DNA from: Candidatus Auribacterota bacterium
GTDB lineage: Bacteria; Auribacterota; JAFGBW01; JAFGJP01
Length of the DNA stretch: 64,000 bases
Assembly: GCA_023144635.1 (NCBI GenBank)
Contig: JAGLFH010000001.1
Coordinates: forward strand, 10,324 to 74,323
Reading direction: 5' to 3'
Shown: piece after piece, positions 5,873 through 25,337 of the stretch
Layout of the letters: each line of letters opens with the position of its first letter
Numbering within the stretch: the stretch's first letter is position 1
Notes under the pieces: generated by a model
What the model was told of the DNA's origin: nothing
What the model saw: only the letters and a program-made list of their open reading frames with translations
The model's database searches: none
Translations under genes and position numbers: made by a program

Positions 5873-5977
5873 TACATCTACTTCGTTAAGTTCAAAAGAT
5901 AACAACTTGCTGTATGGGGAAATACAGCTTCGTCGTCCTCTTTATCCTTGCCTCGTATATATATCACTCTTGTCCTT
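5859..5977 (+). repeat. Cruciform repeat family A, copy 1
   Basis: Core CATCTACTTCGTTAAG...TGTAT-n-ATACA..CTTCGTC...CTTGCCTCGT shared with copies at 22.4, 22.6 and 24.7 kb; outer arms 5859-5875 and 5961-5977 are inverted. Confidence 0.75.
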
Positions 5978-6086: not shown

Positions 6087-6400
6087 GAAACAACCCCTTA
6101 ATGGAGAGAGGGATTATTCGCGGCCCTTGTGCCGCTCACCCTTCACCTGATGGTTCAGGGCCTTCCTCCCGGTCGGAAGTTCAAACGCTTGTGTTTTGCA
6201 TCTCCGCCAGAGGCGGATCCGCCTTCGGAGGACATGGCGCATTTGTCGAACCCTTTATGGAAAGTACCAAAACCCAAGCATCAAATAACAAATTAGTAGC
6301 TTTCCTTAGAATATAAGATACTGAGATTGTCGAAGTAATTGATATTTGTTATTTGCTTTTTGGAGTTTATTTTGTGAAGCGAAATAGTGTGTTCTCATCC
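6087..6400 (-). repeat. tRNA-linked structured element ending in a copy of the tRNA-Ser 3' end
   Basis: + strand GGAGAGAGGGATT|ATTCGCGGC...GCCGCTCACCCT...TTCAAACGCTTG...TTTG|TCGAACCC...GTTCTCATCC; homologous to 24588-24888. Confidence 0.75.
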
Positions 6401-6513
6401 CTGTAAAAACAAGAAAACAGACGGCAGATAACAGAGGACAGATAAAAAGATTGTTGGTGATTTTTTTAATGTTTGGAAGGTTTTTCTGTTTTCTGTAAAC
6501 CTCATGATATTTA

Positions 6514-6659
6514 TTTTTTCGCTAGAGAGTAAAATAAATGATTCAGGTACAAGACGGAGTGGCATTTTTCAACCGGAGTGTATGTGTGAATACATGAGGA
6601 TTGGAAAATTCCAAACAACGCAGTAGATGAGTGATTTTTTTGCTCTCTAGCGAAAAAAA
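6514..6659 (-). repeat. Cruciform repeat family A, reverse copy abutting the tRNA-Ser 3' end
   Basis: Inverted arms TTTTTTCGCTAGAGAGTAAAA / TTTTGCTCTCTAGCGAAAAAA; reverse complement of core reads CATCTACTGCGTT...CCTCATGTAT..ATACAC...GTCTTGTA. Confidence 0.65.
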
Positions 6660-6660
6660 A

Positions 6661-6747
6661 CGGAGAGAGAGGGATTCGAACCCCCGGTCCCTTTCGGGAC
6701 AACGGTTTTCAAGACCGCCGCGTTAAGCCAGACTCTGCCATCTCTCC
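6661..6747 (-). tRNA. tRNA-Ser(TGA), CCA not encoded
   Basis: GGAGAGA acceptor stem, anticodon loop CTTGAAA, long variable arm GTCCCGAAAGGGAC, GGTTCGAATCC T-arm, discriminator G. Confidence 0.96.
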
Positions 6748-7029
6748 ATTAAAGGGTTGTTTCGTACTAATATTCTTTTCTTTTATATTACCAAAATGTT
6801 CTTTAATCCATGAACGTCCAACTCCGGATTTAAGAAAATTTTCTCTTTTCCTTGCTTCAGTGTAAGTATTGAAGATTTCCTTATGAATAAGTATCCAAGG
6901 ACATCCACTTTTTGTTGATCGTGTTTTACCTCTATTGTGTTCCTTTAAGCGATTTTCAATACTACCCTTAGTTGCTCCAATATAAAACTTATTTTTCTTT
7001 CTACTGAATAAAATATATGTAAAAGTCAT
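6709..7029 (-). CDS. Small stand-alone GIY-YIG nuclease; 3' end overlaps tRNA-Ser
   Basis: FTYILFS..KFYIGAT..RLKEHNRG..STK..PW..EARKRENFLKSGVGR matches the UPF0213/SLX1-like GIY-YIG pattern. Confidence 0.9.
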   Translation of the reverse strand: MTFTYILFSRKKNKFYIGATKGSIENRLKEHNRGKTRSTKSGCPWILIHKEIFNTYTEARKRENFLKSGVGRSWIKEHFGNIKEKNISTKQPFNGEMAESGLTRRS

Positions 7030-12485: not shown

Positions 12486-13040
12486 CTATCTTTTTTTAAT
12501 AAGTTCTAAGAACTCATTTCGCGTTGCTCTTTCATCTCTAAATGCACCAAGCATAGCAGAAGTTACTGCAGCAGAGTTTTGTTTTTCAACTCCGCGCATT
12601 GCCATACACAAATGAGTTGCTTCAATAACAACACCTACACCAAGAGGATTTATGGCGTTTTGTATTGTTTCTGCTATTTGAGTTGTGAGGCGCTCTTGGA
12701 CCTGAAGACGCCTTGAAAAGCATTCGACTATTCTTGGTATCTTGCTAAGACCTATAAGCATACCATCAGGTAAATATGCAACGTGACATTTTCCGTAAAA
12801 TGGCAACATATGATGTTCGCAAAGACTATAAATATCGATGTTTTTAATGATCACCATTTCATCGTATTTTTCTTTAAAAACACCATTTTTTAAAATTGAA
12901 ATAGGATCTTCATTATAGCCTTTAGTTAGAAATTTAAGTGATTTAGCAAATCTGTAAGGCGTTTTTTCAAGTCCCTCACGTGTAACATCTTCACCAATAG
13001 CTTCAATTATCTTTTTGACACTTTCTTCAATAGCTTTCAT
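12486..13040 (-). CDS. folE: GTP cyclohydrolase I
   Basis: [34 protein letters not shown] and HLCMAMRGV. Confidence 0.97.
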
Positions 13041-16000
13041 TTTTTAAATATACTCCTCTTGCAATAATTCGAAACGCCTGACAAACTGCTTCTTTATCAT
13101 CAAGGCCTCTTAAACGCATAATACAGGCGCTTCTTTTTACAGTTTTTATAGCATCAGCTTCAGCTTCAAGAAAAAGCCTTCTGACCATATCAGGATAAAG
13201 ATTATGGAGATAATCCTTTGCCATACCAAAAGTGAAAATTTGACGCTCACGGTTTTTTATAATATTCCAAGCGCAAGAAAAATCAAAAAGAAGAGTGAAA
13301 GTCTTATCAAATCCATCCAGTATTGATTGGAAGAAAGAATGCTGTTCTCGTGTACCTATTCCAAAATCAAGGCCGGTTATATGGTTATAAAAAAGTCCGA
13401 GTATCTCGGCATAGATAGATTCGGTATAAAAAATAGGCAATGCTATTTTTCCTTCTTTTTCAGCTTGAAATAAGACCTGTGCTAAAACTTTTGCCTGATA
13501 TTCTAGTGAATCAGGAATAGGGCAGCGGCCAAGTACAGAAATATCATCCAGGAGGGCGGAGATCTTTTCTTCCACTGATTGGCAAAAAATATCTCTTTTG
13601 CTGCTTCTTCCTTTCCAGTTTTCAGGATAAATATCTTTAATGGATTCCACAGCGTTAAAAAGAACGTCGTTTTCCATCTCGGAAAATACTTTTTTTGAAG
13701 AGCTTTGCATCTTTTGAAGAGCTTTATCGTTCATCAGATGCTTATGGAGTTCGACATCATCACCTTTTATTATAATTCTTTCTATAAAAGGCCCTGTCTT
13801 TACTCTACTTAGAATATCTTTATAATAATCTTCTATGTCTTTTGCGGCACTTGATTCATTTTTAAACATTTTTAAAGCCCTTTGAGATACACTTCTTTTT
13901 GCAAGTTCTACAAAAGGCTGGTTTTGAGGATCTGTATCAAAGTAAGTTTTCATTTCCTTTGAATCTTTTTTATTAAAATTAAGTTTATCAACAGAGACCT
14001 TTTTAGCAATAAAATTTTCAGCTGTCCTTAATATTCCAAAGCGAACGGTGAACTCCTGAAAGAAAAGAGCGCAAGCGGCCATATTTTCTTCACTTAAATT
14101 ATTTCTGTTAAATTCAAATATAGGGACTTTCTTTGCTATTGATTTTTCAAGCTGTAATTTGGAAACTGATTTATCAAGTGAACGAGTATTTTGGATTATA
14201 ACAAGAGGGGGCTTTGAAGGATTAAGTTTTAAAATTGTTTTTACTTTTCTGTTTAATTCATCATTGCCTATAGCAGTTATTACAAAAGCACCTTTTCTGT
14301 TTTTGCCGTTGCTTTCAGGAAAGAGCTGAGCTTTTTGCTGTGCTTCAGCTTTCATGTAAAAAAGCGGATAAGCAAATATGATGACTTCAGGATCTATTAT
14401 GTGTGAAAGAACAGCAAGTTTTAGTGCAGAGTTTTCTTCTGCCTCATGACTCTCCAGTAACGGTATCAGCTTTTTCCCTGCAATAAATTGTTTTTGAATG
14501 GATCTTCCTGAAAAGAATATGGTTACTGCTCCTGATTGGCAAAGTTCTGAAAAACGGCCTCCTACATTATTAGGAATTGTAAAAACTGCTAAAGGAGAGT
14601 CTTTCATAAGTTCTTTGATCATTGGAGATGATGCAAAAGCATAAAAGCGGCTTTGTTCCTTAGAAATAGAAGTTGTAAAAATAACTCTCTTAAAAAGTTC
14701 TTTTAGTAAAGTAAGTCCCTGCGGATCAAGCTTCAGGTCTTTCAATTTTGATTTTGAAAAAAGAATTTTATTTTCACCTTCATTGCCCTTCTTTAATAAG
14801 GTACGAAACCTGTCAAAAACTTCTTCACCAACTACTGCTCCAAAATCAAAATGTATTGCAAGCTCTATGCAGAGTGTATGCAGTGCATCTTGAAAACCAA
14901 TAAGTGTTTCATCAGTGGTTCCTGATTTTGAACTTGCATGAAGGAGTATTTTATGAGATGGTATGTGGCTTTTTTTGAATTCATTTAAAACGGATCCGAT
15001 ATCTGTGCCTAGTTTTTCAATGACCTTTATTTTTAAACCTTTGATTCGGCCCATGGTTTCTATTTGAGCCCTGTTTCCTAGCGCTTGCCCACCGATACCA
15101 AAATGGATAAGACCAGAGAACCCTTCTTTAATACGGCTTACTATCCACTTTTGAATTTCTTTTCTCTCACTTTCAGCATTGGATCCAAAAGTGCCTTTTT
15201 TTGTGCTTCTGTATCCAAATCGATCACTTGATTCATTTTTATCTATTAATTTCACATGTTCTTTAAAAGCTTTGCTTTTCAAAAATGCCTGGTAATCTTT
15301 TAAAGAAACGAATGAATCAAAATTCTTAAATGAGAAGATGTCGTAATCTTTTTTTATAACATGGGAACTATTAGGAGAGCTAATGCTGTTTTGAAATAAG
15401 AGTTCTTTTTCTATTTCTTCTATGCCTATATCTTTTATCTGAGAACTTTTAAGAAAATCAATAAATTCTTCAATTACCATTATTAGTCTTTTTTGTGTAG
15501 GTCCTTCAAATTTATATGTAAATTTCGGTGATGTATTTGATGCTCTCATTAGAAGAAATGAATTATCTTCAAAAACAATGCGAACGCCATCAATATCAAT
15601 AATATTGCTGATCTCTTTTGAAAAAGGATTTGATATTCTCTTTTCTTTTATTTCAAAAGCGGTTTTCTTAAAATCATCTATGGCGGCAAATTTCTCACTA
15701 TCCTCAAAAGGAGCTTTGTCTCGTATTTCATTGGAAACAGGTTGCCATTTAAAAATATCAAAAATATCTTTTACCAGATAAGATCTTTTTTTCTTAAGTT
15801 TTAGATAAGCTTCTTTTGCTTCCACATCATTAAGGCTGTCAATAATGCAAAGCAGATTTACGGAAGAAAAAATGCCGTCATCAATGACTATGTCAGGATA
15901 GTTGTCCGGTGCTGTTGCATAGAAAAAATGCCCGGATGTTTCTGCTGACGTATAAGTCTTTTTTAACTTTTCAAGAAGGTCTTTGTCTTTTTTAGCCGGT

Positions 16001-17271
16001 TTCTTTGTTTGGATGATATTGTCAATCTTTTCTATTTGTTCTTTAACAAATGTTCTATGACTTGGGTAACCGCCTGGAATGTAAAATCCGAAAAGACCCA
16101 GTTTTTTCTTTTTTGCAAAATCGGCAATCAGCTTTTCTGTAAAGCTTGGTCCTCGAACGTCAAGAGCAAGACCAACTTTTTCACCGATTTTTTCAAGGTA
16201 TTGTAAAGCACTTAAGTTTTCCAGTATGAAACGGATATAATTTATCACAACTATTTTTTCAGGATAAATTACATCACCATCTTCATTAACAATACCGGAG
16301 CGGTCTCCGTCACCGTCAAAAACAACCCCAATAAACGGGATTTTACTTGTTTTATTAAGGGAACGAACAAATTCACAGGTAAATTTTACGCCATCTTCTT
16401 TCGAAGGATCTGCAGGATGGTTTGGAAAACGACCATCACTTTTGCTGAAAATTGAAAGTGTTTGCACTCCTAATGCCTTAAAAAGTTTTTCTGCACATGC
16501 TCCGACACCATTTCCGGGATCAAGGACAACAGCAAAAGATTTTTTAAATTTTCCTTTTCCGGCTTTAAGTTTCTTTTTGAAATATTTTATAAAATCGTCA
16601 ATATATTCATCTACAATACCTTTTAATTCCCTTTTTTTTCCGCCATCAAGAAATCGAAGACCTGTTTTTGAAACAATACGATCATAAATATTAATCAGTT
16701 CAAAAGGACGGTTTCTTTTATTACCATAAAGAGCTGATGGATCTCCTGATGCGTTATGAAAACCATTTTTATCCTGCCGGCTGGTTATTTTAAAGCCGTT
16801 ATTAAAATAAGGATTATGTGAACCGGTTATCTGTATTGAAATATCATAATCTGATATCAGTATCTTACGGCTTACTGCCCCTGTGGGAACTTCTTCTTCA
16901 GTATAATCTACGTAGCAGCCCGCATCAAAGGCTCCCTCTACAAGAGCTTTTCTTAAACTTGGTGACGATAATCTGTTGTCTGCCGCAATAAAAACCTTTG
17001 GTCTGTAGTCTTTTTCTTTTTGGGATGAACTTTTTTCTATAAAATCACAACCTATCGCAAGTCCTATTAAATATGCATCTTTTGGCCTCAGATTTACTCT
17101 TGCATCCTTATAACATGCAATTGCATCTCCTCTTATATCATATCCCTGGAAAATATTTATATCTATTTTCTCACAATCATTTAAAGCAGATTCTTTATCA
17201 ATGGTATCTTTTTCTTCTTCGATAGAATTAAATGCTGACGTGTTAAGTAATTTTTCTATAGAACCCTTCAT
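13027..17271 (-). CDS. Fused phosphomanno/glucomutase and phosphoglucose isomerase-like protein
   Basis: N half: YDIRG, TGSHNP, DGDGDR, AETSGH, DGVR, RASNTSP. C half: [43 protein letters not shown]. Confidence 0.82.
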
Positions 17272-22402: not shown

Positions 22403-22803
22403 TCTTTCTGGCGAATTAGAAAGCTACTTTCACTTCGTTAAGCATCAAATCGGATTCCTTGGTGTATGAAAAAATACACCTTCGTCATCCTCTTTCGCTT
22501 GCCTCGTGCTAGCAGTTTTCTAATTCGCCAGAAAGGTTCAATTTAAAGAGATACTGTAGTTTTGATCCTTGCCTCTACAGTATTTTTGATTTGTGAATTA
22601 TACGGGCTAATAAGTATGATAAAAGCACTTTCACTTCGTTAAGTAATAAATCGGATTCCTTGGTGTATGAAAAAATACACCTTCGTCGTTCTCTTATCGC
22701 TTGCCTCGTGCTAGCAGTTTTCTAATTCGCCAGAAAGATTCAATTTAAAGAGATACTGTAGTTTTGATGCCTTGCATCTACAGTGCTCTTGATTTTTGAA
22801 TTA
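22401..22803 (+). repeat. Tandem pair (period about 201 bp) of family A cruciform plus a second hairpin
   Basis: 22426-22600 and 22627-22803 are near-identical; inverted arms AATCTTTCTGGCGAATTAGAAA / TTTCTAATTCGCCAGAAAG. Confidence 0.88.
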
Positions 22804-22850: not shown

Positions 22851-24539
22851 TTATTTTTCTATTTTTATTAAAACGCCTTCTATATGCTGTATCCCGGTAT
22901 CAAATAATATTTCATACTTAAATGAAAGAGCTTCAAGAGATGCAGCGTAATTTTTGCGTGTAAACAAAAAGATGTTGTTATATCCTTTTGGAGAAATGTC
23001 TTTTATTTCTTCTAATTTAAGCAGCGGTTCGATTTTTCTTCCACTGTAATATATAAGGTCTTCAGGGGGTGTGTCAAAAACATATACGGGCTGATTTCCT
23101 TTAAGGGTTTTATTCACTTTATTGGCAAAAGTTCTAAGAGAACGATGCCGGTTAAAGATAGGAATAATACTATGTATAAAAAAGATGTTTATAATGATCA
23201 TTACGGTAACTATTGAGTATAAGACTCCGCTAAACTTATTTTTGTAAAAAAGAAAAAGAAGAAGAGCTCCCGTCAAGACAAGTAACAGTACTATAAGGGA
23301 TAAAAATATCTGATTTTGTTGAATAATGGCTTCTATTTTTGGGAACATTATGCGGTCGAACTGTGAAAGGCGAGACTGTATGGTCTGGTAAAGCTTATTT
23401 CTTAAGAAGCTGTTTTGAAATATAAAGAACAGACTTCCAAGACAAGTGAAAAAAATAGCGTTTAAATAAGTAGAAACCCTGAAAAGCGAAAAAGAATATT
23501 CTTTATTTATAACATATGAAAAAAAGTTAGCTGTTATAATGGCTGCCGGAATATAAAGCGGAAGGATATAAACGCCTCGCTTGCTTTTAGAAATTGAAAA
23601 GAATAAAAATACAACAATAACACATGAAAAAGAAAAAAGGTCTATCTTTGACATTTTCTTTTTTCTGAAAAGTCCTGCCAGGCATCCCGAAAGAAAGAAA
23701 AAAGTCCAGGGCATGAACCCGCCTATGAACTGTGTAATAAAGTAATTGAAAGGTTTTTTATGATCAAAGGCTTTTAAGAACCTGTTCATATTTTGGTTGA
23801 TAAAAAATTCAGAAACAAAATCCATTCCTTTGGTTATCATTAAAGCGAAATACCAGCCTCCTCCTAAAAATATAAAAATAAGAATTCCCCATAAATTTAA
23901 TATCTTAAAAACAAATGAAATATTGCGATCCAGAAGCAGGAACAGCAATATGCCCCCAGCAATGATGACTATTCCTGCCGGGCCTTTTGCCAGCACGGCA
24001 AGGGCTGAAAAAACGTAAAAAGAAAGAAGATACAGAGATCTTTGTTTTTTCTGCAGATTTTCATAGAAATTATAGAACCTGAAAAAGATAAGGTATGATA
24101 TTCCTACAAGGACGGAAAAAAGAGGATCGATCTGTGCTACCCGTGACATCCATGCAAACTTGTATGTTGTAAGAAAGATAAGGCTCGCAAAAAAGCGGGC
24201 TTGATTCGTAATAATCCCGGATAACAAAAAGTAGATGGCAAGAGCTCCTATAAGAAAAGATAATGATGATGGGAGGCGTGAAGAAAAGACGTTGACTTGT
24301 TTTTCTGTTAAAAGGGATGCCATGCATTCTGTCCAGTGAAAGAGGGGTGGTTTCCATGGAGTAAAAACTCCGTTAAACCGCGGGATAAGAAAATCTCCTG
24401 ATAGGATCATTTCCTGTGCTATTCTGGCATCACGGGTTTCCCCTGAGCTCCAGAGATCTCGGTCGGAAATTTTATAAAATGACATAAAAAACCAAATAAG
24501 AACAATAAAAGATATTTCGATAATAAAATGTTTTTTCAT
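22851..24539 (-). CDS. ArnT/PMT-family (GT39/83) membrane glycosyltransferase
   Basis: E.R.A.IA.EM..SGD...P..NG...KPPL.HW, RLPS, LAKGP and R..YILP; polytopic membrane protein. Confidence 0.9.
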   Translation of the reverse strand: MKKHFIIEISFIVLIWFFMSFYKISDRDLWSSGETRDARIAQEMILSGDFLIPRFNGVFTPWKPPLFHWTECMASLLTEKQVNVFSSRLPSSLSFLIGALAIYFLLSGIITNQARFFASLIFLTTYKFAWMSRVAQIDPLFSVLVGISYLIFFRFYNFYENLQKKQRSLYLLSFYVFSALAVLAKGPAGIVIIAGGILLFLLLDRNISFVFKILNLWGILIFIFLGGGWYFALMITKGMDFVSEFFINQNMNRFLKAFDHKKPFNYFITQFIGGFMPWTFFFLSGCLAGLFRKKKMSKIDLFSFSCVIVVFLFFSISKSKRGVYILPLYIPAAIITANFFSYVINKEYSFSLFRVSTYLNAIFFTCLGSLFFIFQNSFLRNKLYQTIQSRLSQFDRIMFPKIEAIIQQNQIFLSLIVLLLVLTGALLLFLFYKNKFSGVLYSIVTVMIIINIFFIHSIIPIFNRHRSLRTFANKVNKTLKGNQPVYVFDTPPEDLIYYSGRKIEPLLKLEEIKDISPKGYNNIFLFTRKNYAASLEALSFKYEILFDTGIQHIEGVLIKIEK

Positions 24540-24587
24540 ATATGATTTTTAATGGAATAAGTTCTTATGTGCTTTTGCATTCAAGCT

Positions 24588-24888
24588 AAATAAAAAAATA
24601 CGCCCTGTTGGATTATTCGCGGCATCGTGCCGCTCACCCTTTTGATAAACGATAAAATCACATCTACTTCGTTAAGCTTTAAATCAGACTCCTCACTGTA
24701 TGAAAAAATACACCTTCGTCGTCTTCTTTTGCTTGCCTCGTATATGCGGTTTTCTCATTCATCACATACCGGGCTGTCACGCTTTAGCGTGCCATTCAAA
24801 CGCTTGTTTTTGCATCTCCGCCAGAAGGGAGGGCGGATCCGCCTTCTGAGGACATGCCGCGTTTGTCGAACCACAAGGTTCTCATCCA
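24588..24888 (-). repeat. tRNA-linked structured element ending in a copy of the tRNA-Lys 3' end, with nested family A and CCGCC palindrome copies
   Basis: TACGCCCTGTTGGATT|ATTCGCGGCATCGTGCCGCTCACCCT...TTCAAACGCTTG...TTTG|TCGAACCA..GGTTCTCATCC versus tRNA TACGCCCTGTTGGATTCGAACCA. Confidence 0.8.
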
Positions 24889-24905
24889 ACAGAAATAAAA
24901 AAAAA

Positions 24906-24978
24906 TACGCCCTGTTGGATTCGAACCAACGACCCATTGATTAAGAGTCAATTGCTCTACCAACTGAGCTAAGGGCGC
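24906..24978 (-). tRNA. tRNA-Lys(CTT), CCA not encoded
   Basis: GCGCCCT TAGCTCAGTTGGTAGAGC ATTGA CTCTTAA TCAAT ... GTTGGTTCGAATCCAAC AGGGCGTA cloverleaf. Confidence 0.96.
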
Positions 24979-25162
24979 ATTTATAAACGTGTTTAGTTAT
25001 TAGTGTTTCGTAAATTGAGCACTTCCGCCTTCGCAAAGCTACAGCGAGACAGGTCGTGCAATTATATTAAAAACGAAAAGCAGTTAATAGTTTTTTCAAT
25101 AATATATATTTTTTTCCTCATACGAACCACGAATCACTATTCGCGAGAAACGATTTTTTTAC

Positions 25163-25240
25163 TGGGGTGAGCGACGGGATTTGAACCCGCGAAAACTTGA
25201 GTCACAGTCAAGTGTCTTAGACCGCTAGACAACGCCCACC
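25163..25240 (-). tRNA. tRNA-His(GTG) with G-1 and encoded CCA
   Basis: GGTGGGCG...CTTGA CTGTGAC TCAAG...GCGGGTTCAAATCCCGT CGCTCAC CCCA. Confidence 0.95.
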
Positions 25241-25337
25241 ACGTAAAAGGGAATATGTTAATTGATAATATTCTATTTTGCAATATTTTTTTCCTTGCGG
25301 GTAAATGAAATTAACCTATAATGACCTAATATAAATT

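Follow-up and report, generated by a model that had tools for sequence, protein, structure and literature searches.

What kind of sequence follows two different tRNA genes of a Candidatus Auribacterota bacterium and, at each of them, closes with that tRNA's own 3' end? The window, by which we mean the whole stretch of 64,000 nt analysed here (assembly GCA_023144635.1, contig JAGLFH010000001.1, positions 10,324 to 74,323), holds three tRNAs on its minus strand, Ser(tga), Lys(ctt) and His, all recognised by ARAGORN and Rfam, and a body of ~130 nt, enlarged by nested inserts, stands behind both tRNA-Lys and tRNA-Ser. The sequence-only reading of this locus had described an element that either propagates through tRNA T-arms or mimics a tRNA, and that recalls the tRNA-linked repeats of enterobacteria. 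The observation is confirmed and that interpretation is partly supported. Our findings indicate that the element is likely to be a divergent member of the tRNA-linked repeat (TLR) or RtT RNA family, RF00391; it accordingly belongs to a family already catalogued, an outcome that the sequence-only reading had named as one that would refute it, though it stays below the 45-bit cut-off of that family here.

Searches in both directions carry this assignment. The RF00391 model aligns all 130 positions to the copy on contig C24 of this genome (38.6 bits, E 2e-6, its best match in the genome), with agreement at GAUGAGAACC, GGUUCGA, GCCCGAAGGG and CGAAUAAUCC, and aligns more weakly to copies on contigs C65, C36, C10 (20 bits), C6 and C49. 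In the other direction, a covariance model (R1; alignment A4, 37 pairs) for which seven copies of this genome were the only input matches the 'RtT sRNA' (small RNA) annotated by PGAP/RefSeq behind Escherichia coli proK (56.8 bits, E 2e-15), the TLR in the E. coli rrnB T1-T2 spacer (35.6 bits, E 1.9e-9) and gammaproteobacterial units among the named loci described below. Given these reciprocal matches, the likeness to the enterobacterial repeats is real homology. Both window copies lie 3' of a tRNA on the same strand, at a distance of 13 nt from tRNA-Lys and 257 nt from tRNA-Ser, and both repeat the end of the upstream tRNA at their own 3' end, for 16 of 16 encoded nt at Lys and for 12 nt followed by a 2-nt gap at Ser, where E. 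coli members repeat 18-19. The element shares motifs and fold with the E. coli members, as seen in the RF00391 alignment to the C24 copy and in the R1 matches. Within the window, R1, whose seven sequences are other copies, matches the Lys copy at 24730-24897 (41.8 bits), its 3' piece at 24592-24675 (21.8 bits, E 0.013) and the Ser copy at 6095-6282 (44.1 bits), and a BLAST search of the Lys copy against the genome aligns it to the Ser copy with 87% identity over 73 nt and 91% over 33 nt.

At the Lys locus (all window coordinates given here and below refer to minus-strand features), tRNA-Lys(ctt) occupies 24905-24979 (Rfam tRNA 74.4 bits; T-loop TTCGAATCC; no encoded CCA), tRNA-His occupies 25163-25239, and a T-rich trailer of 12-13 nt (spacer T1, 24893-24904), which recurs after the element, separates tRNA-Lys from the unit. 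The entire unit, from the S1 arm through the copied tRNA tail and with a nested repeat included, spans 24599-24892. Its S1 arm (CTGTTGGAT, 24884-24892) begins 13 nt past the tRNA end and can form Watson-Crick pairs throughout with ATCCAACAG of the copied tail, giving the closing helix P1. There follow a GAG junction, the P1b hairpin AACC-TTGT-GGTT and a CGA junction (24866-24883; family motif GAUGAGAACC..GGUUCGA); the P2 hairpin CAAACGC/GCGTTTG with a long extension that bears the palindrome GGCGGATCCGCC (24797-24865); AAT, which joins P2 to P3; the P3 hairpin GGCACGC-TAAA-GCGTGAC (24775-24793); the P4 stem GCCC/GGGT (24636-24774), the loop of which is a 125-nt nested repeat of a separate family (24644-24768); GA; and the P5 hairpin GCGGC-ACGAT-GCCGC with the junction GAATA (24614-24633). 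The terminal segment X (24588-24613) is a copy of tRNA-Lys from nt 59 to the discriminator (24613-24599) plus the repeated trailer TTTTTTTATTT (24598-24588), and the 3' terminus, ATCCAACAGGGCGTA plus TTTTTTTATTT, thereby leads from the T-loop to the discriminator and on into the trailer. Counted from A58, the tail AATCCAACAGGGCGTA plus seven T (24614-24588 against 24918-24893) equals tRNA-Lys at 16 of 16 encoded nt up to the discriminator and at 7 nt of trailer, the CCA not being encoded. The Lys-linked element is not an assembly artefact, because 24400-25300 is carried unchanged, and with no joint that skips the element, by contigs of four DNA sequencing runs, which come from one study and two of which may be the source of the assembly.

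The same parts follow in the same order at the Ser locus, where tRNA-Ser(tga) (6660-6748), again with T-loop TTCGAATCC, is followed by a spacer (6403-6659) and by a unit at 6103-6402. This comprises S1 AGGGAT (6397-6402), GAG (6394-6396), a P1b interrupted by an insert (6253-6390) ahead of its GGTT (6249-6252), the body P2-P5 (6120-6245), made up of P2 with the palindrome (6182-6245), P3 (6162-6178), P4 (6138-6161) and P5 (6120-6135), and finally, at 6103-6119, the junction GAATA (6115-6119) and the X segment ATCCCTCTCTCC (6103-6114), which is the tRNA-Ser 3' strand minus one TC; its tail, AATCCCTCTCTC, equals the tRNA for 12 nt, after which these 2 nt are absent. It differs from the Lys copy in the ~138-nt insert in P1b, a small hairpin inside the P4 loop and the 257-nt spacer. 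Every motif quoted by the sequence-only reading was recovered on the minus strand in its stated order in both copies, and both bodies do run into the 3' strand of their own tRNA from T-loop A58/A59, fully at Lys and with the TC missing at Ser. The CCGCC palindrome GGCGGATCCGCC, rightly seen in both, is the tip of the extended P2 hairpin; it recurs in one degenerate copy (C6:163593-163737) and is lacking in the other copies examined. The nested inserts of the window copies thus occupy hairpin loops (P4, P1b, P2 tip), where the fold tolerates them. The spacer behind tRNA-Ser contains ACAGA-rich arms (~6403-6490 and 6516-6659) and also a pair of 16-bp inverted repeats (TTTTTTCGCTAGAGAG / CTCTCTAGCGAAAAAA, ~110 nt apart) that looks like a small inserted element.

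According to PMC8144298, TLRs were first described in 1978, the first of them behind tyrT, E. coli K-12 carries 22 at ten loci, each closes with 18-19 bp that repeat the 3' terminus of the tRNA or rRNA ahead of it, and their function remains unknown. The same source names rrA, rrB and rrF as the TLRs behind 5S rRNA in E. coli rrnA, rrnB and rrnD, and states that rrB is made by read-through, that its 3' repeat has been suggested as a processing signal, and that the three reportedly bind Hfq and CsrA in vitro; a CsrA role should not be carried over from them, because the 19 tRNA-linked TLRs scored <0.01 for CsrA binding by its algorithm. Our literature search, conducted mostly among papers open without subscription and therefore implying nothing about absence from print, found no account of TLRs outside the Enterobacterales; Supplementary Figures 1-2 of PMC8144298 (loci, conservation) may bear on the distribution given below. 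Compared with the E. coli members, the units described here likewise lie 3' of a tRNA on its strand, end in the tRNA's own 3' end, form tandem arrays and share the motifs GGAUGAGAACC..GGUUCGA..GCCCGAAGGGCGA..CGAGUAAUCC along with the reciprocal model matches. They differ in that P2 (CAAACGC/GCGUUUG) carries lineage-specific extensions and P3 is of two types, in that several host tRNAs have no encoded CCA, so that the copied tail ends at the discriminator and leads into the trailer, and in the nested inserts and low scores. The body P2-P5 of rrA, rrB and rrF is the same and those units too finish in 18 nt copied from the 3' end of the RNA ahead of them, but their host is a 5S rRNA and, by eye, they have no S1-type arm complementary to the copied tail. 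A second Rfam family, AaHKsRNA22 (RF02902, Aggregatibacter sRNA 22), gives weak full-length alignments over P2-P5 and GAGUAAUCC, to the copy on contig C10 (L008:1473-1576, 17.7 bits) and to the Ser copy of the window (6103-6207, 16.6 bits); these scores are far under its gathering score of 39.8, and it may be the same family under a second name.

Searches by BLAST and guided by Rfam located at least nine further copies in this genome, seven behind or beside five other tRNAs and two orphans. Minimal copies without inserts stand behind tRNA-Ser(gct) (contig C24, 127 nt), tRNA-Met (C10), tRNA-Gln(ttg) (C36) and tRNA-Leu(cag) (C65), and two more stand in tandem behind tRNA-Pro(tgg) (C6, 163825-164300, L017). 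A degenerate unit 5' of tRNA-Pro (C6:163540-163830) has the same promoter-like repeat TTTACTATTGACGTAATAGTT on both sides, an arrangement that looks like the remains of a lost tRNA gene, once preceded by a promoter of its own, of which the unit alone is left. The orphans carry the tail of tRNA-Gln(ctg) (C25) and of a tRNA-Ser (C49), and their left flank is a tRNA 3'-end remnant only. In the sibling copies the tail identity is at least 18 nt, CCA included, and at the Lys, Gln, Leu and Ser(gct) loci the repeat runs on into the trailer. The linkage is not due to chance, as a copy accompanies 7 of the 14 tRNAs with T-loop TTCGAATCC and 0 of the 24 other tRNAs (hypergeometric p ~3e-4).

The pattern within this genome would also be expected of a non-autonomous mobile DNA element that spreads among stable-RNA genes, with a body that enters a tRNA at its T-loop, ~18 nt from the 3' end, or 5S rRNA at the same distance from its end, flanking arms that are re-templated from the host, the upstream one as a complement through hairpin (fold-back) template switching, and an RNA fold that matters little. 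A single genome with copies at Ser(tga), Ser(gct), Lys, Met, Gln, Leu and Pro, each with its own tail, and orphans with tRNA 3'-end remnants at their left, suit such an element, as does the tally of 11 matches here against at most two in each of the seven other positive genomes of the phylum. Near-identical dispersed copies are absent, however, the core distances being 0.25-0.48 within the genome and 0.11 in the tandem pair, and no target-site duplication, transposase or integrase was seen beside the copies. Taking these points together with those that follow, we regard a mobile element as a rather unlikely replacement for the TLR reading, though the two can coexist, with mobility as the route by which new copies are born. 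A miniature inverted-repeat transposable element, in particular, was rejected, given that the inverted arms S1 and X are host-tRNA sequence differing at each locus, that there is no short target duplication, and that the cores are as distant as stated.

Linkage to tRNAs extends well beyond this genome. A strict pattern scan, with one genome per species, returned at least 119 stretches, from which 80 loci with 94 matches were analysed; the counts in this and the following paragraph that concern pattern-scan copies hold among the matches listed. A same-strand tRNA lies upstream in 81 of the 94, and the remaining 13 comprise 11 within 350 nt of the edge of the locus and two orphans (L058, L061). 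The first unit begins 10-71 nt from the tRNA, the host T-loop is TTCGAATCC in 79 of 81 tRNAs, and the hosts represent at least 19 anticodon types, with Gln, Tyr, Ser, Lys, Arg and Pro the commonest. Identity to the tRNA from A59 reaches at least 15 nt in 63 of 84 copies; it is exactly 18 nt in 13 copies and at least 40 nt, in arrays or repeated trailers, in 21. In 41 of 88 cases a core and its nearest neighbour in another genome agree in amino-acid type, whereas 300 shuffles average 16.8 such cases and never exceed 28, a comparison that uses nearest-neighbour counts because the cores are too short for a tree and that is confounded by the relatedness of many gammaproteobacterial genomes. This fits long residence with the tRNA gene, and cores that track tRNA type across genomes tell against a mobile element.

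The earlier interpretation needs revision as to how the unit is joined to its host. GGTTCGA had been taken as the 5' half of a local T-arm, split from ATCC by the insert. The true partner of the copied T-stem/acceptor 3' strand is the S1 arm upstream of GAUGAG, which forms 3-12 contiguous Watson-Crick pairs with the copied tail; at least seven pairs are formed in 35 of 102 copies, where chance would give about 1 in 64 of those reaching four. Across 21 host positions that are not Watson-Crick in the tRNA, S1 carries the complement of the tail at 13, the tRNA's own 5' base at 1 and neither at 7, and so S1 was written or selected as a complement and not copied from the tRNA 5' strands. An S1 that is Watson-Crick where the tRNA has G-U (the same 13 against 1) is predicted by the DNA templating of a mobile element and is not required by selection on an RNA. 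The literal split arm GGTTCGA|ATCC stood up in the two tRNA-Pro copies and in E. coli proK, where the bases before TTCGA copy the tRNA; elsewhere, GGTTCGA is mostly a family motif that pairs with an upstream GAACC, and only 11 of 84 copies match the T-stem of their host in the five bases that precede TTCGA. As this is still ~8 times the ~1.3 expected, the split T-arm may be the state of a unit at birth; the excess also speaks for a mobile element. Nor is the T-arm a required site, because the family follows 5S rRNA in E. coli, where the body of the unit lies within a split copy of the 5S 3' region. In the tandem Pro units, S1 and P1b are replaced by a copy of tRNA-Pro nt 27-58, and the body sits exactly between TTYGA and ATCC; the anticodon loop of this copy is the reverse complement of the real loop, with the stem kept, which we read as the probable footprint of strand switching at a hairpin. 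Both the Pro and the 5S arrangement favor a body that was inserted as a mobile element would be. We infer that each unit starts out as its host's 3' region, copied and split, after which P1 is retained and the remainder decays.

The units adopt a common fold of six helices, P1, P1b, P2, P3, P4 and P5, and this covarying fold, with the tRNA linkage, supports the description of a structured non-coding element that lies behind a tRNA and on its strand. In P1, which closes the unit, the S1 arm pairs with copied tRNA nt 59 to ~68, P1b is GAACC/GGUUC, and P2-P5 form the body, with conserved junctions GAUGAG, CGA, AAC, GA and GARUAAU; a tandem GA motif noted for RtT RNA in 10.1101/2020.02.04.933952 would agree with the GAUGAG and CGAGUAAU junctions. 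In alignment A5 (96 of the matches listed, from 75 loci, 94 distinct, aligned to R1), 90.9% of the cells of the 94 distinct sequences are paired and double changes occur in 37 of 37 pairs (572 cells), pair counts that are inflated by the fitting of A5 to the model structure and that come from related sequences; the covariation score, 0.36, is reached by 0 of 500 shuffles, which give 0.105, and drops to ~0.04 with slid partners. The seven copies of this genome, aligned by MAFFT and not fitted to a model, have 83% of cells paired and double changes in 11 pairs, again reached by 0 of 500 shuffles. Compensatory changes are clearest in P2, P3 and P5. P1b is paired in 97.9% of cells yet almost invariant, as are the inner pairs of P1, and covariation consequently neither supports nor rejects P1b. 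On the tRNA-sense strand, G-U/U-G cells number 102 against 52 for A-C/C-A (66 against 23 without P1), an excess that fits selection on the transcript and that, with the changes in P2, P3 and P5, speaks against a mobile element. The Rfam consensus instead pairs UUCG of GGUUCGA with CGAA of CCCGAAGGG; by inspection of the copies, loops of TTCA, GCA and TTTT fit a local P4 hairpin better, and that pairing was set aside.

The family is spread widely. The named loci of the pattern scan are, among the matches listed, mostly Gammaproteobacteria of many orders, together with Zeta- and Alphaproteobacteria, at least seven Bacteroidota, one Poribacteria metagenome-assembled genome (MAG) and one Gracilibacteria MAG. 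The unit and tRNA-Gln(ctg) of one 'Halobacteria archaeon' MAG (L100) are nearly equal to those of a gammaproteobacterial MAG (L097), and on this resemblance the archaeal contig is probably mis-binned. Of the 14 named loci compared with it, the Rfam cut-off is reached by three, namely those of E. coli, a Zetaproteobacteria MAG and Nitrococcus, and by none of the seven Bacteroidota loci nor by the Poribacteria and Gracilibacteria loci, so that current annotation under-reports the TLR family. With a model built from A5 (R2) and genomes counted at E<=0.001, matches were found in 8 of 79 sampled genomes of the window's own phylum, in 14 of 151 of the phylum of a Bacteroidota genome, and in 68 of 151 of the class of E. 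coli (66 of 149 without two flagged as unpublished). The genome studied here has 11 R2 matches. The strict pattern had no match in 2.9 million viral contigs, a further point against a mobile element. The same architecture with tRNA-specific ends thus recurs in a small phylum sampled from sediment and in Bacteroidota, Poribacteria and Gracilibacteria MAGs, and is common in Gammaproteobacteria, and this spread argues for an old, selected RNA and not for an enterobacterial curiosity.

Change in copy number is visible at E. coli proK. Among 30 rows sampled evenly from a ranking of 5,441 records, 14 have an annotated RtT sRNA (one of them two), 15 have none and one is irrelevant. Alleles with 0, 1 and 2 units (L165, L166 and L167, one of each aligned) differ by one 168-bp unit flanked by ~110-bp repeats, and are therefore products of unequal recombination, a logic shared with the '3.14 repeats' that the 1978 paper names in its title, according to the reference list of PMC8144298. 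All three kinds of allele are common among complete E. coli genomes. The '0' allele keeps the 5' third of the unit, namely the spacer with a terminator hairpin, S1, P1b and GGTTCGACTCGA, followed by a REP element; with these parts retained it is a recombination product and not a virgin site, and it was rejected as an empty site. The sole polymorphism seen is thus one of unequal recombination and not of insertion, which tells against a mobile element. The REP element adjoins the truncated last proK unit. An orthologous empty site was also sought in a genome of the same order as the window's (G003), where a His-Lys(ctt) pair with T-loop TTCGAGTCT has no element; the flanks are not conserved and no insertion boundary can be read.

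Based on these results, we propose that the element is a module of ~130 nt that is encoded on the strand of its tRNA, within the 3' trailer, and that would be transcribed by read-through from the tRNA promoter, as E. coli members are reported to be; next to the window copies, promoter-like sites did not exceed what shuffles predict. The 3' tail of such an RNA would be the tRNA's own 3' end, and consequently the enzymes that trim and finish tRNA 3' ends should give it a defined, protected, tRNA-like end, which would sit on a helix resembling the T-stem and acceptor. Direct repeats of tRNA tail and trailer would allow unequal recombination to yield 0, 1 or 2 units and tandem arrays, as they do in E. 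coli. Our best guess is that the product is a stable by-product RNA, one that imitates its own tRNA at the 3' side for some factor that binds tRNA ends. The six-helix model with its 35-37 covarying pairs, the S1 complement rule and the natural 0/1/2 alleles of proK make the question of function testable.

Several points weigh against this proposal and the family assignment behind it, in addition to the inflated pair counts, the invariance of P1b and the confounding by related genomes noted above. Every copy in this genome scores below the RF00391 gathering score of 45 bits, in searches that were run in E-value mode, and RF00391 gives no match to the two window copies even at E<=10. The latter is because of their nested inserts and divergence, and the cut-off is an annotation threshold rather than a biological feature; we therefore file the element as a divergent homologue of RF00391 and not as a match at the level of Rfam. 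When the stretch was sought in sequencing runs, it was found whole only in DNA runs, and the RNA runs contained small shares of it that fit the conserved parts of tRNAs, such that transcription, ends and stability of the RNA in this organism are deduced. The terminator hairpin in the spacer ahead of the proK unit implies that the RNA may be made at a low level only. The 11 matches here against at most two in each of the other positive genomes of the phylum, along with the two orphans, have the appearance of spread inside the genome, and a purely resident RNA gene does not account for this. Finally, the tRNA-like 3' end could be a by-product of the way copies originate and not a functional feature.

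A more ambitious interpretation, which we consider improbable at present, holds that TLRs are an ancient cross-phylum module of stable-RNA operons that tailors itself to its host gene, the RNA acting in trans. The body may settle in a duplicated tRNA end (T-loop UUCGA|AUCC) or 5S rRNA end, ~18 nt from the 3' terminus, strand switching templated by a hairpin may then turn the upstream arm into an exact complement of the 3' strand of the host, and the RNA may then present a spare, helix-held T-stem/acceptor 3' strand with a tRNA-like tail. If true, a TLR RNA would act on 3'-end nucleases, the CCA-adding enzyme or toxins that cut the T-loop or acceptor, either as a decoy or as a complementing 3' piece.

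It is very unlikely that the element is the scar of site-specific integration, that is, the attL and attR of a phage or island that targeted a tRNA and lost its interior, leaving ~300 bp. The direct repeat of the tRNA 3' part from the T-loop that flanks the element does resemble the tRNA 3'-end duplications made by tyrosine integrases, one class of which typically has its crossover site in the T-loop. Those duplications differ, however, in that here the repeats enclose a conserved, folded body with covarying helices, which measures ~130 nt, is found in many phyla behind tRNAs of at least 19 anticodon types and is accompanied by the inverted arm S1, whereas no integrase and no remnant of cargo accompanies it, only 130-300 nt of body separating the repeats. 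In addition, the units listed are co-oriented with the tRNA at 10-71 nt from it, and the family also stands behind 5S rRNA and is absent from the viral contigs. That the element is a chance or neutral duplication in place, belonging to no family, of the 3' part of the tRNA has next to no probability, since, although tandem duplication does occur at these loci, it is refuted by the reciprocal matches to E. coli RtT and by the motifs and fold shared by at least 96 matches in 75 loci (94 distinct).

Other structured RNAs were compared with the element. Like the tRNA-like domain of tmRNA and viral tRNA-like structures, it has a helix on the 3' strand of T-stem and acceptor and a tRNA-like tail; in contrast to them, its P1 consists of AU, the T-stem and 1-7 acceptor bases only, with a tail of 4-10 nt, and the T-loop is replaced by a multi-helix junction. 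Neither ARAGORN nor Rfam calls a tmRNA or tRNA at the element. A tRNA gene with an intron-like insert in its T-loop was rejected, as there is no 5' acceptor strand or D arm and only the Pro copies keep tRNA nt 27-58. A hammerhead or other small ribozyme was likewise rejected, as GAUGAG is present without the CU of CUGAUGA, inspection revealed no matching GAAA and stem arrangement, and no such Rfam match was found.

Some further repeats and one gene of this genome deserve mention. ACAGA/TCTGT words abound in the spacers between tRNA and unit, where long imperfect hairpins are possible (the Ser spacer, C25:12190-12310 and the trailers on C36 and C65), and they also trail the copied tRNA tail at the Gln and Leu loci. 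The repeat nested in the P4 loop of the Lys unit belongs to a separate family of ~95-125 nt whose members are 77-85% alike and share the blocks ATATACGAGGCAAG..GACGACGAAG..CATACAG..CTTAACGAAGTAGATGT; this family, which has no Rfam match at gathering score, recurs in the window at 5874-5960, 22432-22526 and 22618-22728 and elsewhere in the genome at C6:160864-160980, C54:7479-7536 and C63:8334-8372. Base composition had at first suggested a Bacteroidota origin for the window, but a search for SusD gave no match, and the names that NCBIfam gives to nine window proteins are those of housekeeping functions. Lastly, a 1414-aa open frame at 13027-17271 of the window joins a phosphoglucosamine/phosphomanno-mutase-like N-terminal part to a glucose-6-phosphate isomerase-like part, an unusual fusion.

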